DNA of 64,000 bases from Cyanophora paradoxa CCMP329 (taxonomy: Eukaryota > Plantae > Glaucophyta). Under the pieces are notes generated by a model. The model saw nothing but the letters and a program-made list of their open reading frames with translations. It did not search any database and was not told the DNA's origin. Each line of letters starts with the position of its first letter. Within the stretch, counting starts at the first letter, position 1. Positions 15,165 through 53,407 of the stretch are shown piece after piece. The stretch is taken from the NCBI GenBank assembly GCA_004431415.1, contig QPMI01000565.1:1-64000 (forward strand), in the 5' to 3' direction. Both the position numbers and the translations under genes were made by a program.

Positions 15165-15357
15165 GTTTACTCAAAAGTGGACTCATGGTTGACTCAAATT
15201 TATCATAAAAGACCCAAACAGTCTTTTATTTATGGTTTATTTATCGATTAGGTTGACTAAGTGGGGGGAGTTGACTCTTTTGTTCACAGATTCTAAAAAA
15301 GGACTCTGCCCTAAAAAGAAATAAAAAGTGCCTCAACTTCACCCACTAAGTCAACCA
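15165..15357. repeat. A-type iteron array (GTTGACT/GTGGACT) in inverted arrangement after helicase A
   Basis: GGTTGACTAAGTGGGGGGAGTTGAC (15251-15275) is the exact reverse complement of 21356-21380. Confidence 0.75.
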
Positions 15358-15407
15358 AAAAATGATTTAAGAGATAGAAAAATATATTTATATGTTAGAA
15401 GTAAGAC

Positions 15408-15758
15408 ATGGCTGGAACAGATCATGATTCTGGATCGATCTATATGATTGAGAGTCAGGAAATGAACAAAATCTACATAGGGAGAACCTCACAGCCACTA
15501 CACAAAAGATGGAGACAACACAAATCAGGTGAAATGAAATCCACAGCAGACCTATGCAAGGCTTCTGATGTGAGGTTTTCAGTCCTTTATTCAACTAAGA
15601 AGGGTGGGCATGAAGACCTTATGAACAGAGAAGCATATTACATGTATCTCTTTGAACCTTGGATAGTCAATCTACAAAAACCGAAATCTCGATTTAGGAT
15701 TAATAGGTTTTTGCGATTTCATTCAGAGGAAGCCAATGGATCCATTAAAACATTTTAA
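15408..15758 (+). CDS. GIY-YIG endonuclease
   Basis: GSIYMI...IYIGRT..L.KRWRQH...REAYY. Confidence 0.85.
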   Translation: MAGTDHDSGSIYMIESQEMNKIYIGRTSQPLHKRWRQHKSGEMKSTADLCKASDVRFSVLYSTKKGGHEDLMNREAYYMYLFEPWIVNLQKPKSRFRINRFLRFHSEEANGSIKTF

Positions 15759-15818
15759 ATTGCGTTTAGAACATCCTAAAATAAAATATCCCCTTAGAAT
15801 AGGAACAAGTTAGGAATA

Positions 15819-18800
15819 ATGCCCCGAATTACCAACAAACTCATAAGGGAGAAGAAATGGAACTCATGGGATTGCTGGGAACACTATATGCAGCCCATGA
15901 AATAACAGAGGCTGAATATGACCGGGAAATAGATTTAATTGCAAGGGCAGACCCACTTTAAGCAGATTAACCAGAAAAGCAAATAACCTATATGATAAAA
16001 TTGAAACCTTGGATGAACTGGATAGGCTTAGGCAAATAGAACCAGAGGCAGAAGATGGAACAGCCATGAATGAATTATATCGCTGGCTCACATACAGAGC
16101 CAGAAGGGAAGTTGTTGTAGATGTGATTGAATTCCTGGATAGAATTGCTACATCCCTTCCAAATCGATTAAAGCAGGGTTTAGATCAATTCAGGGCAATC
16201 AAGGTTCGCTTGTCTTTTATCTGCAAGTTCGTTAAAGTGAGCAATCCACAGGTTTGGATATCGAAATACATTTACAGTGATTACTTTGTATTAACCAGGT
16301 CGAGAAATATTCGAACTGAGCTGAATAAAGCAGCCCAAATGTGTCAGGAGCAGATGAATGTGGTTGATAGCTATCGCTTAGAAAGAATTGAAATACTCAG
16401 AGTGGCTATTATGAGTTATGCTCCAACTGGTGGATGCTTTCTACAAACCCCAGAGTGGATTGCTAGGAAGAGAGCCACAGTGAATATTCGAAATATAGAT
16501 GATTCCTGCTTCGAAAATGCGATTTTAGCCTCGATTTACAGAAAATCTATTAACTCCCATAAGAGGAATGAGCTTTCACAATATCGCAAATGGAAATACT
16601 CAGCAATCGCTTATAATCCGCTGGCTCTCAATTTCGACAATATCCCATTCCCTGTTGCCTGTGATGCTGAAATAATTGATAAATTCGAGGCTCAAAATGC
16701 AGGCATTAGCATTAATATATTCGGAATCGATGGAGAGGTTGTTTATCCCCTGCATCAATCCAGTTACCCAGGCAGAAAGCATAAGGTTAATCTCATGCTG
16801 ATATTTGATGATGAAGGGAATGGTCATTATATTACAATCATGTCCCTTTCAAGATTATTGAAAGTAAACCATGAAACATACAATGATCAGAAGTTACACT
16901 ACTGTGATACATGCTTATCTCGATTCAGGTCTGAGGCTAAACTCACTGCTCATGTGGACTCAAACAGATGCATTGATTGGAGACTCTCAAAGGGAATCAC
17001 ACCTAAACCTGAGACCACCATAGAGTTTGGACTCAAAAACCTCAGGAAAACTGTTTGGCTTCCTGTTGTGGTTTACTGCAAGATTGAACATAGAAGCATC
17101 CCCATTGATGCATCGAAATCCAAGAGGGAAGTCTCAGCAGTCAACATTAGAATAGTCACTGGGGCAGATGTTCAGGAGTTTCGATTTGAGGGTCAGGATC
17201 CAATGGGAGGTCTGTTTGAATGCTTGGAGTCCAAAGCAAGAGAGCTAATCGATTTCCTGTTCACCAATATTCCCATGAATGAACTCACAGATGAGCAAAA
17301 GGCTATTTACAGAGCTACCAAACACTGTTACCTTTGCAGTGAGAGGTTCACCAAGGAAAACTTCAAATGCAGGGATCATGATCACCACACAGGTAATTAC
17401 ATTGCACCTGCATGCAGAAACTGCAATCTCCATAGGAGAATCTCAAAGCAAACAAAAGTAGCAGTGGTTGTTGACCAAATGGATGACTGTGGGACATTCA
17501 TTTTCAGAAAAATAGCAGGCATGGGTGATAAAAAGCGAATCGAAATCCTTTCGAAAAACTTTGATCAATACCTTTCATTGCAATGGGGTCTTTACAAGTT
17601 CATTGATGCAAGTAATTTATGGACTTTGGGGCTGCTGATGTAGATGAGTTAATGAGCAAATTCCAGGCTTTCAGAAGGCTTTCACACTCAGTATATGGAT
17701 TGGACCCAGTTCATTATGTATCTGCACCTGGTTATCTTGGGATGCTATGCTTAGGACCACCAAGGCAAAAATAGAGCTTATAAGTGATGTAGAGCAATAC
17801 GAATTTGTTGAGAGGGAATCAGGGTGGCTTTGCAACAATGCCTTGTAGGTATGCTGAGGCTGATGGTGAAAACTCCCACATTATGCTGTTTGATGCTAAC
17901 AACTTGTATGGCTACTGTTTGAGTCAGCCAATTCCAGTTGGTGATTTTAGATGGGAGACCGAATTCAACCCACAAGATAACAGATCCAGTTTCCTAGAAG
18001 TTGATCTGGATTACCCAATTAGGCTGTTTCTAGATCACAGTGATTCCCCCTAATTATTAACAAGAAAATAATAGATTATGCCGAATTATCACAATATCAA
18101 AAGAGCCTATTAGATCTTTCAGGAGAAGAGCTTGATAAGACCCCTAAGCTAACTGCAACCTTTGGTTCTGTGACAAACTATGTGATTTCTGAGCCTCTTC
18201 TGCAATATCTGTTGGACAAAGGGGTGAAATTAAAGAAAGTTCACAGGGTCCTATCATTTACTGTGGCTCCTGTAATGAAACCCTATATTGAGCTGAATAC
18301 TGACATGAGAAGGAAAGCAGTGAATAAATTCGAGGCTGATTTCTATAAACTCATGAATAACTCAATCTATGGGAAATGCATTGAATCTTGCAGAGGTAGA
18401 TCTGTGGTTAAGATTGCAAACAGTGAGAAACTGTTTATGAAATATGCAGCCTCCCCATTGGTGAAATCAACAAGTCCCATAAACGAAAAAGCAGTTGCCT
18501 TTGAGTTTTACACAAAGCATGTGAAGCTAGATAAGCCAGTTGCTATTGGGGCTTATGTTCTGGATGCAGCCAAACTGCATAACTACAAGTTCTTCTATGA
18601 TACTGTAAGGTCCCAATGGACAAAAGCAAAGTTACTATTCCATGATACTGACTCCTTTTGTCTATATATCGAATCTAAGACCCTACAAAAAGATATAGAG
18701 AATATATCCTATGCATTAGACCTTGGAGGTGATTCCAGAATGACCCAGGTAAATACAAAAATGAAATGCCTGGCTCTGCTATATTGGAGTATGTGGGTCT

Positions 18801-19056
18801 GAGAGCTAAAGTTTACAGTTTCAGAACTGCTGAGATTGAGAGGAGTAAGCTCTCTGGGACTTCAACTGAGGAACTCCAATTTAATGATTTTAAACAGTGT
18901 TTATTTGCAGGTATCAGCAAGACTGTGACTGCAAAGCAGAAAAGAAGGGCAGATCACACAATAATAGACACTGTGAGTAGAAGGGTTGCCCTAAGCTGCT
19001 TTGATGCAAAGAGATACATCTTACCAGATGGTATTAATTCTGTTCCTTTTAATTAA
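15819..19056 (+). CDS. polB: Protein-primed family B DNA polymerase (terminal-protein/OTU-like N-terminus, endonuclease VII-like insert, degenerate exonuclease; frameshifted)
   Basis: Motif A FDANNLYG, motif B KLMNNSIYGK, motif C FHDTDS; RDHDHHTG..ACRNCN insert; DDSCF..GHY OTU-like Cys/His. Confidence 0.92.
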
Positions 19057-19059
19057 GAG

Positions 19060-20441
19060 ATGCCAGCAACTGGAAGAATAGTTAGGAGAACCACTGAGCA
19101 ACTACAAGGTAACCTACTGCCTATCACAGTTCCCAAGGAGGAAAAGGGAGAATCTCGAATTGTAAAAAAGTCAGAGATGAAAGAGCTTGTCCCAGTAGAG
19201 ATCCCAGTTGCTATTGCAGTGAAAGAAACCAGCAAGATTGCCAAGAGATTCTATGATGTGAGAACTGGTTACAAAGGGCTTCAAGCTATGAGGGCTGAGT
19301 TACCTGATGAATCCTATAAGCAGTTGCAAGAGTTCTATAAAAAACAAGAAGTTGTTCAGATCAATGCACCTGCTATATCTAGGAAGAGAGATCCCATGGT
19401 CCCAATTAGGCAACCCTTGATACCTATGTGATTGATTTGCTCTTTTCCCAGCTTATAAGAAACAAAACAATGGCTATGATACCTTTATGACTGCAATGGA
19501 ATCTACACTGAGAACTGGGTATATCATACCTATAAGGATAAATCAGCTCTCACTACATTAGCTGCATTTAAACAGCTTGAAATGAGAGTGGCAAGACCCA
19601 TAGTAAAAGTTCAATCAGATGCTGGAGTGAATTCCAAAATCGAATATTCCAGGAGTATTTATCTAGTAAATTCATAGAACACCAAGTGAGTGGAACTGCT
19701 GACCATAGAAGCCAAGGTCGAATTGAAGCCTTTAACAAGCAGATTAAGAGACTGATCACAAACTATTGCATAGCTAATAACACAGCTAGATTCTTTGATG
19801 TGTTAGGTGATATTGAGTATAATTACAATAATACAGTTCACTCAGCTACTAAGATGAAGCCAGGCGAAACTACAGAGGAGCATTATAGGTATATAGTGGG
19901 ATTAGAAGATGAAAGATTCAAGAAATCAATAGCTTACCTTGATACCATGCAGCCTGGCATGTTTGTTAGAGTGAAAGTTGAGAAGAACCCCTTTGCTAAA
20001 CAGGGTAACAATTGGTCTAGGATGGTTTACACTGTTGATAGTAGGGAAGGCTTTAAGTTTAAGCTAAGGAGTCCCACTGGTGAGATCATAGAAAACAGGT
20101 TTGCTTTCCATGAGCTGTTGCCTGTGAATGCAGTTGAATATCTAGAAACCCCTACAGTGGATGCCTTGGAGCAAGCCAAAGAGGAAGCCAAGGTTGATGC
20201 TGCTATAAGGAGAGAAGGCATAGAAGCTGCTAATGAAGTCCCAGATAAGCCTTTGATAGAGGCTAGAAAGGAGAAGACTGGCAAGGTTAATAGGGAACTC
20301 AAAAAGCTCACTATAGCAGGGACACAGAAACTTTCTGAGGTTAATAGCCAGAGATGGTATAATGACTTTCAGACTACTAAGGAGTCATATACAGCCCCTA
20401 AACCTCAGAGAACACTAAGAGAAAGGACCAAAACTAGCTAG
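19060..20441 (+). CDS. Retroviral-like (rve, DDE) integrase (frameshifted)
   Basis: Collinear with C copy, which shows VIDL, QSDAGSEF and IEAFN catalytic motifs. Confidence 0.9.
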
Positions 20442-20609: not shown

Positions 20610-21907
20610 CTAGATTAATGCTGTACCCGTCTAGAAAATCAATATTAACGTTTGCTACGATATCTCAACACCAACTTATCAAATCGATGCGCTTAAAACG
20701 TCATAAAATCGAGCATTTCAAGGCGGTCACAGCGCTTATGAGCCATATCGGAATTTCACTAACTGTAACTCCAAATCGCGATGAAACCGATTTTGAATTT
20801 CGATTTTAAATTCGATTAAAATCCATTAAACGTGAGTTTTTAATATAGATCACTAGGAAGTTATCAAATCGATGCACTGACGGTCGAATATAATCACATA
20901 TATCATACATAACAATAACTTGCAATCACATATACGAATCGCAATGTGTATAGATCGCTATTACGATTAAAGCGAGTTTTGAAATTCAAAATTAATTCGA
21001 TTAAATTCGATTATAACTCAAAAATCGCGATTTATAACCATATACTTATCGTTTCGATCAACTTATGATATCGAATATTCAACTATATTATATTGCTTCG
21101 ATAACTGTGATCCCATCTATGATCCCATCAATCTAACACTGCATTTAGTAAGCATCTCCCCTTGATTCCCCCTATTATATTATATTTATATTTAAGTGGA
21201 CTCAAGGTTGACTCATATTAATCGTAAAAGTAGTAAAAGTATATGGATTTTGTTACGAATTCAATGCAAGGGTTGACTAAGTGGGTTGAGTTGACTCAAA
21301 TTTCACAGGAAATATTTGGGACCAAAAGTTTTCTAAAAAGGATTTCAAAAAATGTGTCAACTCCCCCCACTTAGTCAACCCTGACCATAAACAGTAAGGA
21401 TTTGAGCTAACATGTATCACAAAGTGAACATTTTGAGTCCACTTAGAAGATCCACTTTTGAAATCAAAGTTGATTTTGCTTGAAATTTCAAAGTTGATCT
21501 AAAAGTGAGTCCACCCTGATTGATTATGGTAACAAAGTTGACTAAGTTGACTAAGTTGAGTCATCTTAAGAAATTCAAGGAGACTAAGAGTTCAAAATGT
21601 TTATGAAAAGTGAGTCAACTTAGACCACTTATGATAACAAAGTTAAATATTTAATTGATTTAATCGGAAAAGAACATGATTTAATCGAATTTATTGATAT
21701 AATTCCGATTAGATTCATTTAGAATTCAATTAAAATCAATCGAAGTTATTGATATAATTCCGATTAACTACAATTAAGATACAATATCGATTAATCGAGT
21801 TTATCGATATAACATCGATTAAATTAATTGAAATTGCATATAAAAATATGAAAATTCATGTGAAAATTCAAATAAATTAATCGATTTTATTGATATAACA
21901 TCGAATC

Positions 21908-21980
21908 ACACATATGAATATTCATATTTTAATCCTGAGGCGGAACGCCGAGGGATTAAAATATGAATATTCATATGTGT
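21908..21980. repeat. Terminal hairpin of A: perfect 28-bp arms with 17-nt loop
   Basis: ACACATATGAATATTCATATTTTAATCC / GGATTAAAATATGAATATTCATATGTGT. Confidence 0.95.
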
Positions 21981-24900
21981 GACGCGCAGCGCGAGTACTA
22001 CAAACTCGAGAACGAAAAGAAGCAATGGAGCGAGCTGAAAGACAAGGAAATGACAGAGGTCGCGGAGAAGAAGGCGGAAGCGAACAAGCTGATGACAGAC
22101 GCGCAAAGGCAGGAAGAGAGCGCCCTCACCGCGCTAAGGTCGGCAGAGCGCCAGGTCGCGGAAGAGCGCACGAAAATGATACTCGAAGCCGAGGAGGAGC
22201 TGAAGAGGATAAACGAGCAAAGGGAAGCCGCCAAGGCGAAAAAGCTCCAGGAAATTGAGGCGCTTACCGCGGGCACAGAGCTGCTCGAGGCGCAGAGGAA
22301 AGAGATCGAGGATAGGAAGAAGAAATTGGAAAAGGAGGCAGAGGCAAGGAGGCAGCTGCTGGAAGAGGAAGAGGAAACGAGGAGAAAGGCAGGAGAGCTG
22401 CAAACGGGCGCGGTGCAGGAGGCGAACAGGCTCCGGGAGGAGATCAAAAATTTAAAGGAGGCGGCCGAGCGAGCAGACGAGCAGTCGAAAAAATTCAAGG
22501 CCAACGCGGACGAGCTGGCGCAGAGGCTGCTCAAGTACGCGGCCACCGCAGAGGCACGCTCGCCCATGGGGACGGCCGAGACGCAGACCACACCGAGGCC
22601 CGACCCGAGGCCGGCGGCAGAGAGGCTACCCTTTGCGCGTCTGGGTAGGAGCGACCAGGTGAAAGAGCTCATCGGCCTCACGGTCGAGGACCAGAGGGCC
22701 CTCTTCGATGCGTTAGAGCAGCGGCGCAGGGCGGACGAGGAGGCGGTCGCCAAGACAGAAGAGGAACGACTGAAGGCAATGCAAACTGCATCGGACGAGG
22801 AATTCGCACGTCTCGAAGAGCCAAAGGTTGCGGGACGGAAGAGGGCCCTCGAGGCCTTCAAAAACAACACCCTCGATGCCATGGGGGCAAAGATGCGAGA
22901 GCTGAAGAGAAACGAATCGCGCAACGGCGAGAAAATACGAGCTCTCGGGGTTGACATTCGCGACTTCACATATGTGATGAATCAGCTGACGGGCAGGGGC
23001 CAGAAAGACGCGGAAGAGCTGAGGAGAAAGATGGCCGATGAGAAGTGGAAAAACTTTGAGCGCGCGTACGTGCAAAGGTACATCAGCGATGCCATCTGGA
23101 TAGCATACGGCGACGCGGAGGAGATGCACCGCGAACTGCGGACCGAAGCGAGCCTATGGCGGGGCGGCCTCGAATGGTCACTGTACCGGATGCAAAAGGG
23201 GGAGTTTCTGGCAGAGCTGCGAGCCAATCCGAAAACGGTGAGCATCGGCGCACAGAGCGCGTACGTCGGCATGGTCAATTACGTGGAGAAGCTGAGCAAG
23301 TTTTGGGAAAAGCGAAGAGCCGTCATTCCAGCGGAGGGTCTTGCACAGTACGACGCCATGGTGCGCGATCTGGAGGCCTTTAAACGTGAGCATCCACCCG
23401 CCAAATACAAGCTTTACATAGATACAACGGCGTTCATAGGCGAACTAAGGAAGAGAGGAGACGAGGCCAAGAGTCAGATCGAGGAGCGCTACAGAAAGGC
23501 CCAAGCGGACAAGGAGTACGCAAACAGGGTGATTGAAGAGCGGAAGCAGCAGGCGAAGGAGAACGCGGCGAGACGCAACGCCGAGATAGAAGAGCAGAGG
23601 AGGAAGATCGCAGAGCGCAAGGCGGCAGAGGAGGAGGCGAGAAAAACAAAGGTAGAAACAGAGTACCAAGCCTTGAAGCGGGAGGCCAATCAAATATTAA
23701 AACGAAGGGGAAGGGCGTACGCCGATGAGGGCGCGGGCGTCGGCTTGGCCAGCCCAGACGACATCACACTCGCGGAGAGGGACGACGTTTCCGTGGAGGA
23801 GATGCGCCCGGGCACCGCCCGCCTGCCCTCCGAGGGCGTGTTTCAGACGCTCGACAGGCGCGTGATGGGCGACTCGGACGTTATTTTGCGCAACGCCCTG
23901 ATGCCCTACGGCGACTGGAACCGCGCCACCGCCGACGCCCTTGCGGATTTCGACCTCGAGCGATTCACCACCAAAGAGCAGCGCGACGCCTACCTGGGGC
24001 GCCCGAGGGCAAGGCGGCCCGGGGTGGCCAAGGAGGCCCTCAGCGCCGAGACGCTCTTCTCCGCGATGGGTACGGCGAACAACGATGGCATGCCCTTTGG
24101 TGTGGCCGACCTCTTCCAGGGGGCGGGTATCGACCTGGTGGGCGCCGGGCTTGGGGGTACGGGCTCAAGGGCCGGCAGACGACTGGGGGCGGGGGCGACC
24201 GGCCTTGGGCTGACGGCACTGGGCGGGCTACTCTCGTCCTACCAAGCCCTGGAGAGCGGACAGATCACGCAAGCGCAGTTCATGGACAACTTCCGCGACA
24301 GCATGATCATGACCGTGGGCTCGTTTGGCCTTCAGCAGGGGCTCACGTCCGGCCTTCAGTTCCTGAGACCTGGCATGAAGATTGGGTTCGTGGGTGGCAT
24401 GGGCCTGTCGATCCTCGCAGGAATGATCGCCGGCGTCTTCGTGGACATCCTGAACAAGAGGGATGTGGGTACCATCATCAAGAACTTTTTTATGTACCCC
24501 ATCAACTGGGCAGCCGATACGATTCAGTTCATCGGCAAGATCGCGCAGGACATGGTCGAGTGGGGCATTGAGACCTTCGGCTCCGAGGCCGAGCAACTGA
24601 GGATGCGGATTCGGCGAATTGAGGGCGAGCTAGGCGACAACCCCATGGGCGTTTTTACCGGAAGGGGCGGCGACAACGGGGCGCTGAAACTCATCATGGA
24701 GATCGAAACGCTGAAGATGGACGCTGGAAACCAGAAGCAGCCCGAAAGCCTGCAGAAGTTCATCCACGCACTCGACAACGCAATCAACGATTACCGTACC
24801 CCCAAGGACCAGAAGACTCTGCTCGAAATTGATCGTGCAACGGTGCTATACCTGTCGCAGCTCACGGAAACAATGCAGGATGGGCTACTGGCCCTGAACA

Positions 24901-26240: not shown

Positions 26241-26263
26241 TGCTTTTTCTAAGTATCTGGTAA

Positions 26264-27085: not shown

Positions 27086-27087
27086 AA

Positions 27088-29175: not shown

Positions 29176-29214
29176 TTTCCTCTACGATCCGAAAAAATAT
29201 CTGCCCCGGTGTAA

Positions 29215-34126: not shown

Positions 34127-34381
34127 ATGCCACTCAGTGAAGCCCAGAAGAGAGCTATGAAGAGATACCAGCAAACTGAAAAAGGTAAGGCTCAAATAAA
34201 AAAGTTTAACGAAAAAATAGCCACACAGCTTAGAGATCTATATAACACTGATGATACTTATAGAGCCATGAAAATAGCAAGTTCATGTCAGCGAAAGTAT
34301 GCAGCCAATGCAGTCTGCTTTGTCAAGTATTTGTATGATGTCCCTTACTCAAATCGAGGGAGAAAATTGAAACATGTCTAA
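34127..34381 (+). CDS. Small basic hypothetical protein
   Basis: MPLSEAQKRAMKRYQQ; TATA-like upstream sequence. Confidence 0.55.
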   Translation: MPLSEAQKRAMKRYQQTEKGKAQIKKFNEKIATQLRDLYNTDDTYRAMKIASSCQRKYAANAVCFVKYLYDVPYSNRGRKLKHV

Positions 34382-36960: not shown

Positions 36961-37071
36961 CCTTACTGGAAATGGTGTTGTTCACAGGTGTCACAGGTCC
37001 ATCCCATCTAGGGGGCTATAAAAAGAAAAATGACCAGGGGACGATAAAAACCTGTGAACACCTGTGACACC
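36961..37071. repeat. B-type iteron array (GTGTCACAG) in inverted arrangement after helicase B
   Basis: TCACAGGTGTCACAGGTCCATCCCA (36982-37006) is the exact reverse complement of 53195-53219. Confidence 0.8.
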
Positions 37072-37138
37072 TATCGAAAAAGACCAAAATTTGACAAGAA
37101 TACTTAAGGCTTACTTGATTGTGTATAGTGAAGACAAA

Positions 37139-37360: not shown

Positions 37361-37699
37361 CTTGCAATTGATTGCAAGTATAAAGCCAATTCCTTTGTAT
37401 ATATTTTTATAGCTGCCTCAGTGGCATACTGAGACCGCTTTTGCTCAATTATCTTATAGACCTGGGGGTCCATTGCTACTATCAGTAGGCAAATAATATT
37501 TAATCGGTCTCCCTCTGGGTCTCTGCTCCTCTTTTTGGGCTTTTCTGCGATAATAGGATGCCAGGGCTTGCTGCTTTTTATACTCTCTATATTCTGGGTC
37601 CTCTCTATATCGTTTCTGCATTGCCAGAATGTGTCTTATAGACCCCTCAGTAACAGGTTTATCACTGGTAAACTCGATTAAACTAATAGTGTCCTCCAT
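37351..37699 (-). CDS. AT-hook-like small protein (homologue of 11636..11983, frameshifted)
   Basis: Near-identical N-terminal ~78 aa. Confidence 0.6.
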
Positions 37700-37955
37700 T
37701 TATATTCCCAGAGAAAACGTTTTCTGCTGGCAGAGAACTTCTCCTTGGATACTCCTGTTGCTCATATGTATACTCTGTGGGGTCTGCTGGCATTGACTCC
37801 ACAGAAACTGTTGATCTCCTTCTCTCTCTTGCCTCAGATACATTATCCTCAGTATCTGACATCTCAAACTCTATTGTTGTGTCACAGCATCCACTGTGGC
37901 AATTGCTTACCACATGCAGACTGAGCATCTCAATAAACTTTCGTATTATATCCAT
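37683..37955 (-). CDS. Conserved hypothetical protein
   Basis: Homologue of 11380..11652. Confidence 0.6.
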   Translation of the reverse strand: MDIIRKFIEMLSLHVVSNCHSGCCDTTIEFEMSDTEDNVSEARERRRSTVSVESMPADPTEYTYEQQEYPRRSSLPAENVFSGNINGGHY

Positions 37956-37977
37956 GTCTCTAATAAAACAGAGAAAA

Positions 37978-38712
37978 TTAAAGCCAAACTCGTCTTTTAT
38001 ATACTGTGGGAGCTACTCCCTTTTCTACTTCAGCTTTAGTGGCACCAGGTTCAATGGTTCCCTTTTGGGTCTTTGTTTTCATTTCATCTACTGCTTGCTC
38101 ATCGATTTGGTTCTCTTTCTTAGCAATAAACTGTTTATCTGGGACACCAGTAATGCCCATTTTATAAACTTCCTTTCGAAGCATCTCCTTTAGCTTGGCT
38201 CTCTCTTTCTTCTCAGTCACATACTGCTCCAAGGCACTGGATTTGGCTTCCAGATCTTTGAGTTTAGCAGTCATCTCATCCCATTGAGCCTTTGGAATTC
38301 GATGAATATTTTGAGTGGGAGCAGTCTTATATGTGACTTCACCAGCCATAGACTGGATTACCTTGTCTGATTCTTTACTGAGACCCTCACCTTTGCGAGC
38401 CAGTGATAGATCTTGCAAGCCTAAACCTTTATCATCAGCAGCACCAATAATTCGCCTGGCTCCCTCAGCTACAGCCTTCATCTTTGAGGCTTCAGGTGAA
38501 ATGTTGAGTTGGTCACTGGTTGAAGCCTGTGGGGCTTTGTCATCAAATGATTCCTCATAGGCAGCATTGAGGGGGTCTTCTTGTTGTTGAGAGGGCTTCA
38601 CTTCATTCATACCATTGAATTTCAGTGGGTCTGTGTTAATGGATCCATTGTTTCCACCACCTGAATAGCCAACAGCCCCAGCAGGGATCCCTATTTTTCG
38701 TTTGGGAGGCAT
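37978..38712 (-). CDS. Conserved hypothetical protein
   Basis: Homologue of 10623..11357. Confidence 0.7.
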   Translation of the reverse strand: MPPKRKIGIPAGAVGYSGGGNNGSINTDPLKFNGMNEVKPSQQQEDPLNAAYEESFDDKAPQASTSDQLNISPEASKMKAVAEGARRIIGAADDKGLGLQDLSLARKGEGLSKESDKVIQSMAGEVTYKTAPTQNIHRIPKAQWDEMTAKLKDLEAKSSALEQYVTEKKERAKLKEMLRKEVYKMGITGVPDKQFIAKKENQIDEQAVDEMKTKTQKGTIEPGATKAEVEKGVAPTVYKRRVWL

Positions 38713-38740
38713 TGTATCTTTATTAGAATGAGAGATAATT

Positions 38741-39523
38741 TTATAAACCGCGTTTATATCGCATCAATTTATTGCTATGGACTTGGCTTTTCACTTCTTT
38801 AGGGGCTTCCTCTTTCTCTGGAGGTTTCAGTTCATCTTCTTTCTTTTTTGGCTTTCTGTGGAAGCGAGGAAATGGGAAATCTTTCACAAGCTCAGCTTTA
38901 TCTACATAGTATTTAACTGAGTAGTTTGCAGAGGACCAAATAATATACTGATAGGAGTGAACATACTCTTCAAACATCTTGTAAAAATCCTCTTTATTTC
39001 GCATTATATTGTATTCTTCCTCTATGGCTTCCAGTTCTTTGCGATTTGCAGCACTTAAAAACATAGCATAGTCCGAATTAACTCGAATAGTCGAAGAGAC
39101 TTTCCTTAGCTTTTGTGTGATGCAGATAATGGATATTTTCGAATGGCGACCTCTGGAATACAGAGAGCCAATAATTTTATCACGAGTTAGGTCTACAATC
39201 TCATTATCTATAAGATCATCTAAAACTACACATAACTGGTTAACAGGTTGACCTTTTTCTATTTTCTCTTGCCTTTCATCTAGCAATTTAGCAATGTAAG
39301 GGGCATCCCATTTTCCCAGTTGCAATGTTGCAACTTTATCCCAGAAATGATTGAAGCTGGTTCCACTCACAACTAATACAACATCAATCTTTTTGGCATC
39401 ATGCAACTGCTTCAACCAATACTTTACAGCTTCTGATTTACCAGTTGCTGATTTTCCTATTGCCAGTACACGAAATGGTGGCTCTATCATTTCACCAGCC
39501 ACAAATTCATCCAAATCAGTCAT
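38741..39523 (-). CDS. A32/FtsK-like packaging ATPase
   Basis: GKSATGKS, VVLDDL, RGRH. Confidence 0.92.
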   Translation of the reverse strand: MTDLDEFVAGEMIEPPFRVLAIGKSATGKSEAVKYWLKQLHDAKKIDVVLVVSGTSFNHFWDKVATLQLGKWDAPYIAKLLDERQEKIEKGQPVNQLCVVLDDLIDNEIVDLTRDKIIGSLYSRGRHSKISIICITQKLRKVSSTIRVNSDYAMFLSAANRKELEAIEEEYNIMRNKEDFYKMFEEYVHSYQYIIWSSANYSVKYYVDKAELVKDFPFPRFHRKPKKKEDELKPPEKEEAPKEVKSQVHSNKLMRYKRGL

Positions 39524-39588
39524 TGTTGTATATCTTTCTTAATAAAGACATATAAAAATAATGCAGGGAGACTGAATATCGTCACAAT

Positions 39589-40957
39589 CTACAAATTTAT
39601 ACGACGAAGCCCATCTTTGTCCAAAATTATATAGGAATGCATGAGAGCGCGAACATTAACATCGATTACCTTATCTGAAGGCATGTACAGGGTGAGGAAT
39701 GAAGAGGAGGAATTTGTTAAATCAACATAACCAGACTGGGCAATATTTCGAATTGCCTTCTCTCCATCAATGCAGAAACTTAAACCTGAAAGGACATAGC
39801 GATCAGCAACCTTATCCATGTTAGAGCATTTGAAGGCATCAGCAATTAGCTCAGCACCTTTGAGTAGGGAAATTGGCTCAGTGGCAAAAAGTCGCTGACC
39901 ATTAATTTCAACAGTGAAAGTAATATCTTTGGAGTTGGCATAGGTCTTAAGAACACTGTGGGAGCCAGTGGATTTATCAACAGTTGCATTATCACGAACT
40001 GAAACAAGCAGAGCATAAACAAGACCTGAGATTTGAGAGAGGTTAATTCGATTGGGTTGGGCATTGCCCTTGGCAGGGAAAGCACTAGCATCTACAAATC
40101 CAATATCAAGGGAGGGAATAGCCATGCCAGTAGTCTTTACTTTTTCAATTACAGTAGCGAAAAGCTCATCAGAAACATTAATAGCATGCATGTAAAGGCG
40201 AGGAGAAGTAATAGAAATGACAGGGGTTGTTGCACCAAGAGTAAAGTCTGTGATGTTTTGACCAACATTTGCCAGAACAGTTTCAGCAGGGGCAGTTCCA
40301 AGACCATCATCTTTTGAATAATCTACATCAGCTGCTGCAACAGTAAGACCACGACCACCATAGGAAGTTTCAACATAACCCTTTCCAGCATCCTTAAACC
40401 AAACAGTAACAACCATTTCACCAGATAAAGCACCAAGGGAAGGTAGTGATTTAGCCAAGGCACAGGAATTTCAACGAAAAATGAGCCACCAAGGCGGTTG
40501 GTTCCATGAGCAGGAATGCCATGAACCATGCCCATTGATCGCTTCTTTTTAGCTAGTTGATCCTCCGAATAATAGACCAGGGGAAATGAGCAAGGAAATC
40601 AGATGGAATATGGTAGGTGTAAGATCCATAGGTAATTTCAAGTCGCTGAACTAAAGCACCAACTGGGCGAGTGTATCCATTGCGAACTAGGTCAGTATCA
40701 CCAGCAAAAGTGATGGCTGGAAGGTCGAAAGCAAGTTCGAGTTTTCCACAGAAATTGTAGCGAGGTAGCTTGAAGGAAATGCGATTTCCAACATTATTCT
40801 CAAAAGTATTGCTGGGATTCACAACAACTAGAACTGGCTTAGACTTGGATTCGAGACCAAGCATAAGGGAGTTATCCAGGAAAAAGGCTTTCGCCTCCTC
40901 TGGGGTTGTTAGGGCTTCTTTCAGCGAAAGTCTTTGAAGAGTGGAAGTGATATCCAT
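39589..40957 (-). CDS. Putative major capsid protein (frameshifted)
   Basis: Homologue of 7338..8702. Confidence 0.7.
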
Positions 40958-41009
40958 TATATTCTCTTTTATTATACTGCAACATAAAAATCTACCAATG
41001 ATCCTTAAT

Positions 41010-42019
41010 TTATGCGAAGCTTGTAATAACTGGATAGGAAGGGTGAAGCTGCGACATTCTCATCTTAAAGTATTCATAAACTGGGTCTCCTGCTGGCTCA
41101 TCACCATAGCGAATTTCAAAGGTCAGATGAACAGGTTGACCCTCAAAATCAATTGGTTCATTTACAGCATTAACAATATCAACCGAGAAAGTGGATAATC
41201 CAACCTTTTGTTATAGTATTTATAAAGTGGATGAGCCTCTGTTGAATTGTAAACAACATGCTCACCATAATCTTTGTCAGGAACCACTATTTTATGAAAG
41301 TAACCAGTCAGAAGACCATCCCCACATTGAACCAGATCACCCAGCTCCTTTACTCTCACAAACAAAACACTGTCCCTGGTCTTCTCAGGCTCAAAAGAAG
41401 ATATAATGCCATTCACTCGACCATCAGTAAAGATTCCATCAGTGAGAGCATCATAAACTTGGGATTTGATTGGGGAATTCCCATATCTTCCAGGATCAAG
41501 ACCAAGCAGTCTAGCTGAACTCAATAGCTTTTGGATTGTTTGTTGGCTTGGGTTTACAGCAAGTGAGAAAGCCAGGTAAAAAGGCACTGCCGAGTGGAAT
41601 ATAATTCGTTTCAGTGACTCATCCCATTTGCAGCGAATGGATGGTTGGGGAGTTCTGCCAATGAATTTTGAGTTGATTACATTCACCAGCTGTTGGTGGC
41701 TTTGGATGGGGGTCTCGCGATTTACCATGAATTGTTTCCATTGTTCAAAATCAGCAGCTGGGCGAGTTGTTGGAATTCCTGAGCTTCCAGCTCCTGGAGT
41801 TTGTTCCGAATAATAAATACTAAATGTGTTATCAACTGTGACATCTCCTGCTTTGGTTTCACCACTCACCATAGGGATGCTGTTATAAAATTCGGCTGAG
41901 ACCAGTCTCACAGCCCTCACATTCTCATAACTACTGGGGAGTCGAGCCACAAAGCTTGATGTTGGACCATCACCAGAGATTGTATTAAATGAGCTAACCT
42001 CGATGTAATCCACAGGCAT
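41010..42019 (-). CDS. Penton/minor capsid-like protein 2
   Basis: SSFVARLP..ENVRAVRLVSAEFYNS N-terminus; frameshift near the 3' end. Confidence 0.65.
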
Positions 42020-42048
42020 TCTTCTTTTATCTATATTTATATATTAAA

Positions 42049-42981
42049 ATGAATCGACTTGTTAATATTGATAGCAGGGATAGAAGCCAAGGACAAAATG
42101 AAAACTCTTACAGGGTCACCCTCACAACTCCAGTAGAGAGACCAAGGGAATGTAGGGTTCTCTATGCAGAGATTCCAAACAGTATCTATAACAGTGTGGG
42201 AACTGATCATCTAACAGTTCAGTTTAATTACCAAGATGGTTCATATAACCAAGTGATCACACAACAAGTGTATCCCCTTCCCAGTGGCTACATCAATCAG
42301 GGTCATTTTGGGGTAACACACCCTTATAATTATGGGCTGAACTATTCAAGCTTCCAAACCATTGCAGGCAAAACAGTAGCTTTTGAGTTCAAGATATTCT
42401 ACAATCCAACTACCTATAAAGTGGAGTTTTACAGTAATCATGAGTTTCGTTTTATTGCAAGCAACAAGCGAATAGGGAAGCTTTTGGGTGTGAGTTCTAC
42501 TGAATACACCACTGGGTATTATAGCACTCCTCCTGTTGGTGGATCTCCCTATCGACCTGAGAACCTTTTAAAGTATGATGGCAAACCTATTACACCTGAT
42601 CACCCAGCATGGGGAATCACCTTCTCAGGACCCAGACTCTCCTCTAAGCCCTTGCAATATTATTTTGACAGCAGGAAGATGTCTGATATGAATGCTGAGC
42701 AGTATCTGTACATGCATATTAAAGAGCTGTCCCCCTTTGCCAGCAGACACAATATAATTCCAAAATCGCAACCACAAAACCAGGGAGCTATCCTTAGATT
42801 GCAATTGAGTAAGGATATAGGGGGCTATGTTTACCATAGTGGTGAGCATGCAGAATTTATTCAAATCAATGACAGAAACCTGGTGATAAGGGAACTCACT
42901 GTGGAGTTTAAAGATTACTTTGGTGAACTGATTGATATGAATGGAATCGATAATTCTTTTCAGTTGGAGTTTATCGAATAA
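42049..42981 (+). CDS. Penton/minor capsid-like protein 1
   Basis: Intact 310 aa; IDSRDR..Y.V.L..AEIPNSIYN and terminal DMNGIDNSFQLEF. Confidence 0.75.
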   Translation: MNRLVNIDSRDRSQGQNENSYRVTLTTPVERPRECRVLYAEIPNSIYNSVGTDHLTVQFNYQDGSYNQVITQQVYPLPSGYINQGHFGVTHPYNYGLNYSSFQTIAGKTVAFEFKIFYNPTTYKVEFYSNHEFRFIASNKRIGKLLGVSSTEYTTGYYSTPPVGGSPYRPENLLKYDGKPITPDHPAWGITFSGPRLSSKPLQYYFDSRKMSDMNAEQYLYMHIKELSPFASRHNIIPKSQPQNQGAILRLQLSKDIGGYVYHSGEHAEFIQINDRNLVIRELTVEFKDYFGELIDMNGIDNSFQLEFIE

Positions 42982-44527
42982 AGGCACCTGTGAAATCAAC
43001 TCTCATTGTGGGAGCATTCACATACACAAGGGGATAAATGCGAATATATTTAATTCTGAGAGAAAAACCTATGTAAAAAGCATCCTTGATGCTGAGAGGG
43101 AACCCACTCAATAGAGCCATATCACCTGAGTTGTGAGCATTGTTAATGTTCTCACAGACATATATTTTGTTCTGCCCATCTGATCGAATAAAAGACCAGT
43201 TGATCCCATCAGTGGATGTTGCCACATTGAAAATCTTAATAAAAGCATTGGTGTCCCCTGATCCATAGGCAATCACAGAAGAGAGTTCAAAAGTATATGG
43301 GAAAGCAACTTGAAGGTATTCAGTGGGGGTTTCCCATATCTGCTCAGGAGCATAGGCTCCAGCTTCCCAGCCAAATGCTGAAGGTCTAGCCATGAAAGGC
43401 TCTTTACCAGTCACAGAGGATGAGGCAGTGAAGGCATCATCTGCAAGCTGATACCAATTAGCATCCAAAGGTGGTGATGTAGTGAGAGTGGATGAAATGT
43501 AAGCCTTTGAAGGGTTCTTTAGTTCATAGTTTGCTACTAGAAGGCTGCAAAGCTTATTGATCATATCATTGTTTGCTGCTATGTATGTTTCTGTGAAAGA
43601 AAGCATATCTGGGATTTTAGAAGTGTCATCAAGGGAGCTTACTATATGATTTGGAAGAGGTACTGATAGCCTGTAATATCTCCCATAATCCTGATCATAG
43701 TTGTAGGGTAACAACTCCTCCATCTTATCAAGGGCAGATAGCTCACTTGCAGCCATGAGCATGTTAATCAATGGGCTTCCATCTGTTGAGGCAATCCATG
43801 AGAGAATGCCCCAGCTGTTGACAGTCTCATAAGCATAACCCACATAATCAGACTCTAAATGTGGGTCCACCTCTCCACAAGAGATACTTATTACTATAAT
43901 GTCATCATCATCACTGTAAATCTTCTTTGCATGGCTGTAACCACACACACTGGGATTATTGTTTCCCGAAATGGCACCATCAATGAGACAGACATATACT
44001 CCCCGATTGAAATCAACAATGCTTACAGGAGAGAAATATGTAGGAGCAGCAGAAGTAGCCCTAGCAGCAATCTTACAAGGCATAAAGTTGTAATTGTTAT
44101 CATTTGTGATAAATATTGGTTTCATATTCTGAGTATCAAAGGATGTAATCACAATGTCCTTTAGGGAATCCTGTATTAGTGATTCACCAGTCACAGAATA
44201 GATTGCAGTTTCCAATGGTCCCACATCATACTTTGTGTTAAATAGGGCATTTTCAATGATATTTCGAGGATTTGCGAAAATCAAGGGCAGTTGAGTTAGG
44301 TAAATATTGTGTAAATCGTTTGCTGTCAGTTTAGGTTCACCTGGTTTATCAGGATGCCTTATATTCAAACCTATTGCAATGATCCCACCAGTGGAAGTTC
44401 CACTCACAAGATCCACAAGATCGATTATTCTCCTGCCAGTTCGATTTTCGATTTCTTTTAGCAGCCTGGTTATGATAATGCCCCTTGCACCCCCGCCAGA
44501 AAGACTTAAAACGACCTTGAGAGGCAT
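42971..44527 (-). CDS. Patatin-like phospholipase fused to discoidin (F5/8C)-like domain
   Basis: Intact 518 aa; GGGARG/GTSTG/DGA; EYLQV..STDGINW..YIRIYP..MRVDFTG. Confidence 0.88.
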   Translation of the reverse strand: MPLKVVLSLSGGGARGIIITRLLKEIENRTGRRIIDLVDLVSGTSTGGIIAIGLNIRHPDKPGEPKLTANDLHNIYLTQLPLIFANPRNIIENALFNTKYDVGPLETAIYSVTGESLIQDSLKDIVITSFDTQNMKPIFITNDNNYNFMPCKIAARATSAAPTYFSPVSIVDFNRGVYVCLIDGAISGNNNPSVCGYSHAKKIYSDDDDIIVISISCGEVDPHLESDYVGYAYETVNSWGILSWIASTDGSPLINMLMAASELSALDKMEELLPYNYDQDYGRYYRLSVPLPNHIVSSLDDTSKIPDMLSFTETYIAANNDMINKLCSLLVANYELKNPSKAYISSTLTTSPPLDANWYQLADDAFTASSSVTGKEPFMARPSAFGWEAGAYAPEQIWETPTEYLQVAFPYTFELSSVIAYGSGDTNAFIKIFNVATSTDGINWSFIRSDGQNKIYVCENINNAHNSGDMALLSGFPLSIKDAFYIGFSLRIKYIRIYPLVYVNAPTMRVDFTGAFIR

Positions 44528-44570
44528 CTTTTACTTATCAGGAATTTTATAAATCCATATAGTAAAAGCC

Positions 44571-47500
44571 ATGAGCTTCAATTACCCACCAAATCTAGAA
44601 ACCATTCAAGATGATAATGCAAGCAGCACCAAGCATGTGAACTTTGATAATATTAAAGTAAAGGGTTCAGTTTCAATTGACCACAGCTCTGATAATTCAT
44701 CAAAGACTCAATCAAGGGAGCATGCTTTATCTGTGAATCAAACCGATCCAGATAAAGAGGAGGTCAGTGTTGCTTTTAGTTTGGGTAATGTGAAAGCAAA
44801 CCAAGTGGCAGAGATCAAAGCAACAAGAAGGAGACCTAGGAAACTAAAACCCAGTGGCACTCACCCAGATATACCTTCCAGGTTCGATAGTGGTCGATTG
44901 ATTTTCAATGTTCAAGATGAGCAGGGCAAACAGAACACAGCTTTGCGAATTTACAATGAGGGCAGCACTGCAAAAGCTGAGGTCCCCCAAGTATTGCAAG
45001 TGGGTCCCATTGCCAACACAAATCAGGTCTCCTACACAAATGATGTATACCCCAAGGATATTACATATGACTTTGCGAGGAATGAGCCTTTTGGGTTTTT
45101 TACTCCAAAAGATGTCCATCAAAAAAAGCCATCAATTACAATCAACAGTAGCCCCAGTCAACCAGTAGCAATCCATTTACATCCTGATTTAGTCGAAATG
45201 GATAGGCACCTTTTGCCTTTGTATAGCAATGTGAAAGACCTTGGAATTCGAACCAGGCAATGGCGAAATATCCATGGCAGTAATGTGTATGCAAATGGTG
45301 AGAAGCTTGTTAGTGAGAAAACCCTAAGAGAAATCATTGAGCATTATGGTCCCAATGGACCTACTGTCCCATTCCCTATTCCATTTCCCAATGGACCACC
45401 CGATCTAACACCAAAGAAGCAGCCTGGAAGAGAATACACAGCAACTGAAGATGTAGCCTTTGGGCAGCATATTGTTAGTTGGGAGCAAGTTCGCAATAAA
45501 CCTATAATTGAACCCAGAAAGCAAATAGATGAGCAGTATTTACCTCCTGAAGTCGATATATTAGAGCTTGATGAATATCAATTCGTTCCAGATGAGGAAG
45601 AATATTTACCAGATGGTTTTGACCCACAAGAATATGAGTATGATCAATTTGACCCCAATGAGGAGGAGATACTCCCAGATGGTTTTGACCCACAAGAATA
45701 TGAGTATGAACAGAACTATGAACATGATGAGGAGTATTTACCAGATGGTCATGATCCACCAGCTGTTGATTATGAGCAACCTTATGAACCCCATGAGGAA
45801 TTGTTACCAGATGGATTTCGACCTGAGATCTGGGAGTTTTTTCCTGATTATGAACAAATTAATAATAAACCTGCAAAGTATCCCCCAGAGGATCACAATC
45901 ATGATTGGGATGAGATCTTAGGCAAACCTCAAAAGTATCCACCAGAAGATCACAGGCATGATTGGGGTGATATTGATGGGATACCTACTGAGTTCCCACC
46001 AAGCAAACATGAACACACTTGGGATGAGATCAATGACCAACCAGAATTCGCAAAGGTAGAGCCTCTTGATAACTTGGGGGTTTCTCTTTATCAGACTTGT
46101 AATGTCCCTGAAAGAATCTTTTTGAATGAACACTATGTACATGTGAATGGGACACTTGCAAATTCAGCTATGAGAGGACCACTTCATATTAGGACATTAC
46201 CAGGCTCTTTTGAAACCCCACCACCACCAGGAGCAACCATACCAAATATCTTTGTGTCAAGCTACATGGAGGCTGACATTCCCACAGATACATTCAGAGT
46301 CCCAACAGACCCAGCAACCTACCAAAATTACAACTCTGCTATACAGGTTCATGTAGCAGATGTAAGCAGCTTAGATGGCTCAAGACCAATGATAGTTTTC
46401 AGTCGAGATAAGTATTCCTACATTCCCATAGTGGGAACTGCAAATGATAATTATGGAAGGGCAGAGCTTGCATGGATTAAAACAGATTATGGTGGGGTTC
46501 TGGAAGCCAATCAAAGAATGGCTGCAAAAAACATACACAATGAGAGCATTTCGAGAGTAGTCACAGAGGATTACCTTCAAGCTCAGAACTACATAGATGA
46601 AACAGAACTAAATACAATCATTGCAGGTATAGGTATTGGTGTTACAGGCAATTACCTCCCTCTCACAGGTGGGACTATTGATGGAACAGTAACAGCATGT
46701 AACTTCTTTGTCCATACTGAAAGCAATCAAACCTTTCCTGTGGTTCATCCAGGAGGTGAGTATGAGATACCTGATGATCCAGCTATTATGCCCATTAAAA
46801 TCGATCTCCCTTCTGATTATGTGGGAAGGGGTGAACTAAAAACCATCTCTTTCACAGGAGATTATAATGATCTCATAAATAAACCTACTGCTGCAAATTT
46901 GCACCCTGTTGCATTTTCGGGTAGTTTCCTTGATCTTAATAATAGATCACACACCCACACAAAGGCAGAAATTATAGATTTTGCACACACTCACACCAAA
47001 TCCCAGATAACAGATTTTGCTCACTTCCACACCAGAGCAGATATTACGAATTTCGCTCACACTCATGTTAAATCTGAGATCTTAGATCTCGGAAATGTTG
47101 CATATGTGGGTCACACCCATACCAAGGCAGAGATTACAGATCTTGGAAATGTTGCATATGTAGGTCACACCCACACTAAGGCAGAGATTACAGATTTTGC
47201 TCATACTCATGATTGGAATACAGATATATATAACAAACCAGCGATTTTCTCGGGCAACTACAATGATCTGACCAATAAACCCACCCTTGATCCCTTTACA
47301 GCAAATAATATCACTGCAAATGCAAACCTTCTCATTGGATCAGGTTACTTTCTCGATTATGACCCATATATTATGCCTGATCCTCCTGTTATTTGGAATT
47401 TCCACAATTCAACCCTTTCTACTAACTCTATATCTTACTATCAGGATAAAACCCTACTTGTTCGTGGAAATGCATATGCAAGAGAAATGTGGGTAATGGA

Positions 47501-52012: not shown

Positions 52013-52034
52013 GAATATTGGTTATATATAGAGT

Positions 52035-52306
52035 ATGGATAGTAAAACAAAAAAGTTTATTGATGCTGCTATGACAGTTCATGGTAAAGATAAATTCGAT
52101 TACAGTGAGACACATTACATCAAAGCTCAAGAGAAAGTATCTGTTAGATGTTTGCAGTGTAATAAGGTGATCCTTACCTATCCCTTTAATCATGTGAAGG
52201 GATCAGGTTGCAGGAATGCAACAAAAAGCATTCTCAAGCTTATAGGAAAAGGGCTACTTCATCAATCACAGTGGAATATAGAGATGTTTGCATTAGGTTC
52301 GATTAG
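52035..52306 (+). CDS. Single DUF723-like Cys-rich repeat protein or endonuclease remnant
   Basis: HGKDKFDY..CLQC..NHVKGSGC resembles the repeats of 8804..9745; no nuclease domain. Confidence 0.55.
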
Positions 52307-52334
52307 GTTTAATAATTTTTCTAAGGTATTCTTA

Positions 52335-52733
52335 ATGGAGACTCAATACAGGGGCTTTCATGTTATGCTTGATTACAAGGCTAAAACAGCTATTGCAACA
52401 GGACATGAGCATGTAAGCTTCCTTGGTAATTGGATTATGAGAACCCTTGAACAAGCAGTATTAAGGCAAGGCATTAGGATTGTTCACAAACATTGTGAGA
52501 TATTTGATGGCAAAGTATCACCTCCTGGTTTTGCATTGGTTCTGCTATTAGATGAAAGCCATTGTACAGCTCATTGTTATTCCAATGAAGGCATGTTAGC
52601 AATTGATATATTCAGTTGTGGTAAAGACGCTCAGCATAAAACACAAGCAGTAGCAGATGAGATCGATAAAACAATGAATTTCTTAACATTTGAGAAGACT
52701 GAGAGGCATAAACATGATAGATTTCCGTTTTGA
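52335..52733 (+). CDS. speD: S-adenosylmethionine decarboxylase proenzyme (short prokaryote-type)
   Basis: G.HVMLD N-terminus, LLLDESHCTAH self-cleavage motif, AIDIFSCG. Confidence 0.85.
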   Translation: METQYRGFHVMLDYKAKTAIATGHEHVSFLGNWIMRTLEQAVLRQGIRIVHKHCEIFDGKVSPPGFALVLLLDESHCTAHCYSNEGMLAIDIFSCGKDAQHKTQAVADEIDKTMNFLTFEKTERHKHDRFPF

Positions 52734-52883
52734 TGGGTTTCTATAATGATGATCAGGGTGATTTACCTTTTTTATTACAATAACATTGATCAGCTATTAT
52801 AACAAAAGGATATAATATATCCCTTTCCTACAATAGAATATGTTACAATTTCGAATACTATCGATTTCCTTACAATAAAACTC

Positions 52884-53036
52884 AGCATCTCCCCTTCATT
52901 CCCCAATTATAATTTAAGTGGACTCAAGGTTGACTCATATTAATCGTAAAAGTAGTAATAGTATATGGATTTTGTTACGAATTCAATGCAAGGGTTGACT
53001 AAGTGGGTTGAGTTGACTCAAATTTCACAGGAAATA
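52884..53036. repeat. Relic A-type terminal/iteron segment within B's terminal region
   Basis: Near-identical to 21151-21314. Confidence 0.85.
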
Positions 53037-53108
53037 ACAATGAATCAGAGTATAAATGCATTTTTTGAATCAACTACACCAACTAACACTGAGATTTTAA
53101 CAATATAT

Positions 53109-53407
53109 GAGGTCCTTACTGAATATGGTATGTGTCACAGGTGTCACAGGTTTATCCCAAAGTTTCTCCTATAAAGAGTAAATTTCCAAAAGTTTGGGAT
53201 GGACCTGTGACACCTGTGACACTCGATTAAATCATTTATTCATTTAATTAGAAATACATAGATAAGATTATGACTGAGTTTTTCATTATAAAAGAGGTCC
53301 TTACTGAATATGGTATGTGTCACAGGTGTCACAGGTTTATCCCAAAGTTTCTCCTATAAAGAGTGAATTTTCAAAAGTTTGGGATGGACCTGTGACACCT
53401 GTGACAC
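53109..53407. repeat. Duplicated ~114-bp B-type iteron unit
   Basis: 53109-53222 and 53294-53407, each GTGTCACAGGTGTCACAGG...CCTGTGACACCTGTGACAC. Confidence 0.9.

Follow-up and report, generated by a model that had tools for sequence, protein, structure and literature searches.

How polinton-like viruses (PLVs) start their replication is an open question; they are abundant in protist genomes, and many have no recognisable polymerase (PMC10120064, PMC12220804). The question is raised by a 64,000-nucleotide stretch of the genome of the glaucophyte Cyanophora paradoxa CCMP329 (assembly GCA_004431415.1, contig QPMI01000565.1, positions 1 to 64,000 of the forward strand; hereafter the window), in which three AT-rich (~40% GC) virus-like elements, A, B and C, are embedded in GC-rich DNA. 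Behind the primase-helicase gene of A, and behind the different one of B, lies a unit of short inverted repeats with a word of its own, and part of each unit recurs in the terminus of the same element. On the whole of the analysis, these units probably represent helicase-plus-origin cassettes of the type known from Staphylococcus aureus pathogenicity islands (SaPIs), with a matching and swappable slot in the terminus.

Repeat Units behind the Helicase Genes

Helicases A and B give no significant alignment with one another, and the structural modules of their elements are inverted copies at 90.6-94.7% identity. The original prediction of helicase-plus-repeat cassettes, each with its own word, in elements with one capsid module is supported. 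Each internal unit begins at most 45 bases after the helicase stop codon, and both follow one plan, in which a flank motif and two repeats precede a core of ~50 bases and two inverted repeats (Table 1). The inverted GTTGACT-type repeats first described behind A are present, but the inverted arm is degenerate, with exact GTTGACT found three times on the plus strand and once on the minus strand. By a repeat score devised after the units had been seen, those behind helicases A and B reach 23.5 and 19.8, as compared with a maximum of 12.5 behind 35 other genes of the window. In both A units, a TTCACAG word that resembles the repeat of B lies directly inward of arm 1 (15284-15290 and 21302-21309).

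Recurrence in the Termini

The 25-mer at 15251-15275 in the A unit has exact copies at 21356-21380 in the terminus of A, where it is inverted, and at 58193-58217 in C; that of the B unit (36982-37006) has exact inverted copies at 53195-53219 and 53380-53404, in the duplicated unit of the B terminus. All of these positions agree with the original prediction. The chance expectation for a given 25-mer in the window is ~4e-11, the other 240-bp tiles of A and B (161 in all) match their own terminus over at most 14, and the cross matches are at background (11 for the A unit against the B-type part of the B terminus, and 10 for the B unit against the A terminus). Chance and a tandem-repeat artefact are thus ruled out as the source of the recurrence. 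In the window, the 17 A-word doublets are confined to the A internal unit, the A and C termini and the inner terminus of B, and six of the eight B-word doublets lie in the three units of B; the other two, with two mismatches, sit in the fibre gene of A and of B.

The homology between internal and terminal units is wider than the 25-mer and runs in direct orientation, at 68% over 191 nt in A and 83% over 46 nt in B. In both elements, arm 1 of the internal unit is the inverse of arm 2 of the terminal unit, with the cores aligning directly. A flipped segment between the arms is excluded as the cause of the inverted 25-mer, because the cores align in direct orientation.

Element C is an inverted copy of A, 97-99% identical from A 15751 to the end of A, and the window boundary cuts it ahead of its helicase. 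The A-type 25-mer is present in C as first described, but C nearly duplicates A and shows no helicase inside the window. It is no independent case, so that the independent cases of helicase and repeat unit number two.

The Chimeric Terminus of Element B

The B-type units occupy the slot that in A holds arm 2 and further repeats, next to an A-type half unit that ends after arm 1. Outward of this slot, the termini of B and A have in common an ATCGA-rich array, an end repeat and short collinear matches. From the half unit, which would be the scar of a swap, we infer that B arose by a double replacement, in which a cassette with helicase B displaced helicase A and B-type units displaced the matching terminal slot; that the swap ran in this direction is unproven.

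Contigs from three sequencing runs of one organism form a family of many variants. One run contig spans the A-to-B junction (52861-53099), and in one run loose contig ends continue as A or C at the junction borders. A contig 13% divergent from the end of helicase B still continues into the B arm, and three runs link the terminal context to an internal-type arm. The run contigs are mostly unlike the window at the break in helicase B and at several further breaks, and some gene breaks may be assembly errors or private to the window copy. The contig depths, when summed (~25-35k for the structural module, 6-9k for helicase B and 20k for the B-type terminus bin in X2), are not a measure of copy number and carry no weight as evidence here.

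A long terminal repeat (LTR) element at 53724-57082 interrupts the outer terminus of B. It has identical 371-bp ends, a 4-base target duplication and no long coding frame, and lies inside the loop of the B end repeat. A perfect short inverted repeat with a common outer motif closes each end (21908-21982, 57593-57667 and 53661-57306); in A and C it has 29 bp and a 17-base loop, in B 28 bp and a long loop. Such repeats might serve as a hairpin end or as an integrase site. The ATCGA-rich arrays (21640-21907, 53415-53723 and 57083-57306) reach 19-35 per kb, and 35 per kb in the outer terminus of A, as compared with ~3. Common to A-type and B-type ends, they are candidate sites for a common protein.

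Units behind Related Helicases

Searches based on alignments of A-type helicases yielded 11 and 10 loci, from which 12 distinct helicases were scored; left unscored were L003 and L098 (too little DNA past the stop), L099 (gene cut) and the same-contig repeats L006, L092, L094 and L096. Seven of the scored helicases belong to the TVpol-SF3 clade and lie in small contigs that are PLV-like in gene layout, as judged by eye; Pfam names none of the capsid-like genes of these contigs. Six of the seven are followed by an inverted unit that scores higher than the 95th percentile of 84 control genes; among them, L093 and L095 (95% identical, with the same word) are nearly one case. The words differ between loci, with ATGGAGG three against three in L002 and ACGGAAG two against two in L093. 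At the phage-like loci no unit was found within 300 bases (0/2), and arrays occur farther along in both. A strict repeat detector missed even the unit of A, and a k-mer detector responded to 4/12 of the A-type set against 1/121 controls and to 1/76 of the B-type set against 3/748.

Clear units behind D5_N-type helicases are those of L220, in a contig PLV-like by eye with a 2+3 unit 16 bases past the stop, and of L088. In the latter (L088:2973-3080), a Prim-Pol/D5_N helicase close to the end of a 225-kb giant-virus contig is followed by a perfect inverted repeat of 37 bp that contains TTGGAA words in tandem. Loci L005 and L006, on one 27-kb contig, carry the helicase region twice, inverted, possibly as an assembly fold-back.

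In complete relatives the unit stands alone. The record G001, which has inverted ends, contains only four doublets, all of the internal unit, and G003 contains a single doublet in each direction. Among the relatives examined, the terminal copy looks like a speciality of the window lineage rather than a general two-part origin.

The B Word in Other Viruses

The exact 16-base doublet of B was found in 71 viral stretches, mostly singly or within genes, and forms inverted arrays in 13 of them. Eight of the 13 arrays lie directly behind VapE or DUF5906 SF3-like helicase genes in phage-like contigs, as do two additional loci outside the array criterion. Helicases near the word were assigned with Pfam, since helicase profiles miss VapE-type proteins (1/71 loci by profiles). 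Judged by this placement, the B word behaves as an origin-type word elsewhere. The arm pattern of A gave no match. The CCTTACTG-type flank of the B units (36961-36969) also flanks phage arrays with the B word (L139, L149 and L159); beside the phage arrays there are four matches against 0.39 expected, two of them in one locus.

The VapE/DUF5906-type helicases are a different subfamily from helicase B, so that the helicase family does not fix the word. Helicases L002 and L093, in turn, are 72% identical (tails 65%) and have different words, and their predicted recognition-helix and wing residues also differ. A code proper to each helicase type, as originally proposed, therefore holds among close kin but fails at L002 and L093 and at the VapE/DUF5906 loci. 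It is probably the winged-helix tail, rather than the helicase family, that determines the word.

Predicted Winged-Helix Tails

The tail of L002 is modelled as a winged helix (predicted local distance difference test, pLDDT, ~78) and matches the winged helix of MCM8 with Z 7.5 and a root mean square deviation (rmsd) of 2.2 over 68 aligned residues. The closest folds to the L002 helicase model are NrS-1, African swine fever virus PrimPol, SaPI5 PriRep and vaccinia D5; with the tail included, it aligns to NrS-1 (Z 11.4, rmsd 7.3, 274 aligned) and to SaPI5 PriRep (Z 10.7, rmsd 5.7, 253 aligned). The tail of helicase B matches D5-type tails by hidden Markov model (HMM) with E 1e-6, the best of 1000 shuffles reaching 0.07, and one of eight scanned D5-type tails passes Pox_D5. 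Comparison of the B tail with PDB sequences and Pfam gave nothing useful. The winged-helix fold of the C-termini is thus predicted firmly for the relative L002, weakly for B, where the sequence match stands but the model is poor, and by half for A, whose tail is broken.

Proposed Replication Origins and Alternative Explanations

As replication origins, the units behind the helicases and in the termini would each be read by the winged-helix tail of the element's own superfamily 3 (SF3) primase-helicase. SaPI origins consist of opposed repeats around an AT-rich core and are bound by a winged-helix tail (PMC9371898); by analogy, helicase rings would load where the repeats oppose each other, melting the core between them and then priming, and initiation would take place inside the element and near its ends.

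Several points weigh against this reading. In the window there are just two helicases, neither element shows both ends, and the B terminus retains half an A unit, so that the ends are no pure types. The core of the B internal unit is just 57% AT in an element of 40% GC, and the repeat score was devised after the fact. The protein-primed polymerase, encoded by A, needs no internal origin. The model of the B tail is poor (pLDDT 48, fold matches of Z 5.0 or less), and the tail of helicase A itself is broken and half matched. No unit was found behind the three helicases of a more distant clade (0/3) or behind the virophage-like Prim-Pol/D5_N helicase L044. Few helicase genes of D5_N type, mostly giant-virus core genes, have one, with 4/75 above the 95th percentile and, in a second and partly overlapping D5 set, 4/67 above the 99th. 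Copies of the unit elsewhere were found in 0/2 complete relatives and in 0/13 self-compared loci.

The specificity groups of the original prediction are not supported in the form first given; they depend on two helicases, and the end of B is a chimera. No element of the window pairs a helicase only with the other word, so that the refuting case named with the original prediction does not arise here, but the ends are mixed. The P4-like bipartite origin of that prediction likewise lacks support in its original form, as the layout is nearer to that of SaPIs, the primases are not of Toprim type, and neither complete relative has a second copy. A stronger form of the cassette proposal, which we regard as possible but doubtful, is that in this lineage the helicase depends on two sites with one code, the first 3' of the helicase gene and the second in the terminal repeats; one capsid family would then be split into plasmid-like replication groups, with B as a swap with a scar. 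If the helicase does need both sites, a helicase swap must bring a matching swap of the terminal slot.

Alternatively, the units may be footprints of a mobile helicase cassette, moved by homing or terminus invasion on the Barth 2024 model, the terminal copies being relics dispensable for replication. The GIY-YIG gene directly behind the A unit would fit such an origin, as would the recent tandem duplication of the B terminal unit at a chimeric end and the fact that complete relatives manage with one unit. Repeats flank mobile helicases in PMC11296320, and in Gezel-14T a repeat of >300 bases is common to the terminus and the end module, or region behind the replication module (PMC11296320). However, conservation is limited to the repeats while the cores have diverged, and the terminal units are more perfect than the internal ones, both of which suggest selection; we consider this explanation unlikely.

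Slightly less likely still is that the units work as hairpins or cruciforms, as stem-loop origins like that of pRN1 or as end-priming folds, with structure mattering and the word secondary. Each of the four units tested gives a much better fold than shuffled sequence (z -3.3 to -10.7), and helicase B has the domain order of pRN1, whose origin is a stem-loop behind the gene (PMC4234260). Yet the arms consist of short repeats in tandem (period 9 bases in B, L002, L093 and L220), which a plain hairpin does not need, and extra unpaired copies occur in A and in the phage arrays. Least likely of all is a role in controlling the downstream gene, with the repeats as operators or promoters at which the small basic proteins or a host factor would act: type-specific small basic genes adjoin both helicases, the cores contain a TATA-like word and small genes lie downstream of both internal units, but those genes have their own AT-rich stretch near the start codon, the terminal units point towards the end of the element and have no gene behind them, and the same layout occurs behind helicase genes of unrelated viruses. 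The small basic genes next to helicases A and B are nevertheless alternative candidate binders of the repeats.

Under the cassette reading, what is new here is the matched swap of helicase and terminus with its scar; the module was already known in bacteria, and terminal origins and replacement had been published as a hypothesis. The window supplies candidate origins (~100 bases) and candidate tails (~90 residues) as a natural matched pair, so that the question of where replication starts becomes testable with two proteins and two oligonucleotides. It also lends sequence-level support to the published idea that helicase and termini are replaced in PLVs while capsid genes are kept, and may offer a handle on how common integrated viruses replicate and exchange replication genes.

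Other Features of the Window

Table 1. Positions of the elements, genes and repeat units in the window
Feature	Positions	Strand	Remarks
Element A	before base 1 to ~21982		end at right
Small basic gene, beside helicase A only; weak AT-hook match	12033..12359	+	Pfam E 0.022; paralogue of common gene 11636-11983
Primase-helicase A (PriCT_2 + DUF5906-type SF3 helicase)	12515..15164	+	Pfam PriCT_2 E 1.7e-9, DUF5906 E 5.7e-22
A internal unit: doublet upstream, then arm 1 (15251-15275), an AT-rich core of 71% AT and arm 2, inverted and degenerate	15177..15356	+	
GIY-YIG endonuclease gene, directly 3' of A unit	15408..15758	+	Pfam E 4.5e-11
Protein-primed family B polymerase + rve integrase of A, broken	16066..20441	+	DNA_pol_B_2 E 6e-5 and 0.011; rve E 2.4e-4; all under Pfam's cut-off
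A terminal unit, homologous to A internal unit; arm 2 exact inverse of internal arm 1	21196..21380	+	fold z -6.7
Further A-type repeats in A terminus	21436..21620	.	
A outer terminus: ATCGA-rich array, 29-bp inverted repeat at extreme end	21640..21982	.	fold z -14
Element B	~34100 to 57306		
Small basic gene beside helicase B	34127..34381	+	translation; no Pfam family
Primase-helicase B (Prim-Pol + D5_N + SF3 helicase + predicted winged helix)	34592..36918	+	Pfam; tail HMM
B internal unit: CCTTACTG flank, then a pair of TCACAGG-type repeats and, past a core of 57% AT, an inverted pair	36961..37072	+	
Structural module of B: packaging ATPase, predicted double jelly-roll capsid, two minor-capsid-like genes, lipase, fibre	37386..47302		inverted copy of A 1038-11948
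A-type half unit in B inner terminus, ends after arm 1	52884..53036	+	91% to A 21151-21314
Two tandem B-type units (142 bp, 93% alike)	53088..53414	+	fold z -10.7
B outer terminus: ATCGA-rich, homologous to A outer terminus; 28-bp inverted repeat 53661-53688 / 57279-57306	53415..57306	.	
Element C	57593 onward		leaves window at right edge
Terminus of element C, 99% copy of A terminus	57593..58422	-	

Judged by their genes, A, B and C are most likely endogenous PLVs. A replicase and integrase of polinton-like type are present, as rve, pieces of DNA_pol_B_2 and SF3 helicases; A and C both carry pieces of the protein-primed polymerase and the rve integrase, whose reading frame is intact in C (59337-60698, minus strand), and no such pieces were found in the visible part of B. 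The coding region of primase-helicase A is split into at least six open pieces, and that of helicase B has a single frame break, ahead of the last domain. An A32-type packaging ATPase is present (Pox_A32 E 9e-12 and, in the B module, 5e-11), and Patatin is also matched in Pfam. One capsid homologue was found, the EukProt gene model P0173 (55%), which matches Atlas clusters at 0.98 with low recognition, Capsid_N or Capsid_NCLDV being found in 12-18% of the cluster members; the double jelly-roll assignment that follows from P0173 and the Atlas is a lead only. A capsid profile gave no match to other PLV-like capsids. The viral contigs contained no close relatives of the ATPase and no distinct locus for helicase B, and a metagenome search for close relatives gave a single 1-kb contig. 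No element shows both ends within the window, and the ends of A and B lie on opposite sides of the capsid module with a common sequence, which suggests that they may be terminal inverted repeats.

The stretch at 21984-30731 (59% GC) contains a gene for a 1425-residue coiled-coil and fibre-like protein, a C1q spike-like gene and an fn3 gene, all weakly similar to the fibre and spikes of B; it is likely a fourth virus-like element, abutted or interrupted by A. Between 31100 and 33750, a ~2.6-kb stretch has inverted arrays of a 7-base repeat at its borders and two open reading frames without a Pfam family. An S-adenosylmethionine decarboxylase domain joined to an endonuclease-type N-terminal piece (52035-52733) adjoins the terminus of B, and a zinc-finger endonuclease-like gene (8804-9745) lies between capsid and ATPase in A and is absent from B.

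Comparison with Known Systems

Membership of the SaPIs or phage-inducible chromosomal islands (PICIs) proper is that of a bacterial phage satellite without its own capsid module. The elements of the window stand outside that class, as they encode a packaging ATPase, capsid-like genes and an rve integrase. In layout, each has an SF3 helicase with a fused or preceding primase and, behind the gene, at least two opposed repeats on each side of a core, with the blemishes of one degenerate repeat in the A internal arm 2 and the 57% AT core of B. They thus resemble the pri-rep-ori module, above all SaPI5 PriRep5 (PMC9371898; bioRxiv 10.64898/2026.10.17.759575), in the fused primase-SF3 helicase with a winged-helix tail, here predicted, and in an origin, here putative, right behind the gene with at least two opposed repeats on each side and element-specific words. 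Unlike SaPIs, they belong to a eukaryotic-type virus with its own capsid and carry second copies of the unit in the terminus.

Terminal origins and replicon turnover were proposed by Barth 2024. For the PLV 'end module', terminal repeats were proposed as an origin for the primase-helicase, with helicase and termini replaced and capsid genes kept (PMC11296320). The window has in common with that module a repeat in the terminus and behind the replication module, with a GIY-YIG gene nearby; it differs in that the helicase is internal and the integrase of rve type. Sections 8 and 9 of PMC11296320 contain no short-repeat code, winged-helix link or matched pair in one capsid family. A literature search, with subscription papers largely outside its range, found no short-repeat origins in PLVs, though the Gezel-14T repeat may turn out to contain such a unit.

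In phage P4, repeats occur at ori and at crr, which lies just behind the alpha gene, and both sites are required in cis. The window corresponds to this in the order of primase, SF3 helicase and (predicted) winged helix, and in repeats at two separate sites, one of them just behind the gene. The alpha protein binds DNA via its winged helix (PMC4234260, PMC2777425). Its primase is of the Toprim (DnaG) type (PMC4234260), whereas those of the window are archaeo-eukaryotic primases of the Prim-Pol group, with PriCT_2 in A and Prim-Pol in B; here each of the two sites is a complete opposed unit, and it is the terminal site that is duplicated.

Helicase B follows the order of pRN1 ORF904, with Prim-Pol, D5_N, SF3 helicase and winged helix, the last predicted here (PMC4234260, PMC2777425). 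The pRN1 origin is a stem-loop behind the gene without repeats, for which no specific binding was detected (PMC4234260, PMC2777425). The putative origin of B likewise lies behind the gene, but unlike that of pRN1 the units of the window are built of repeats.

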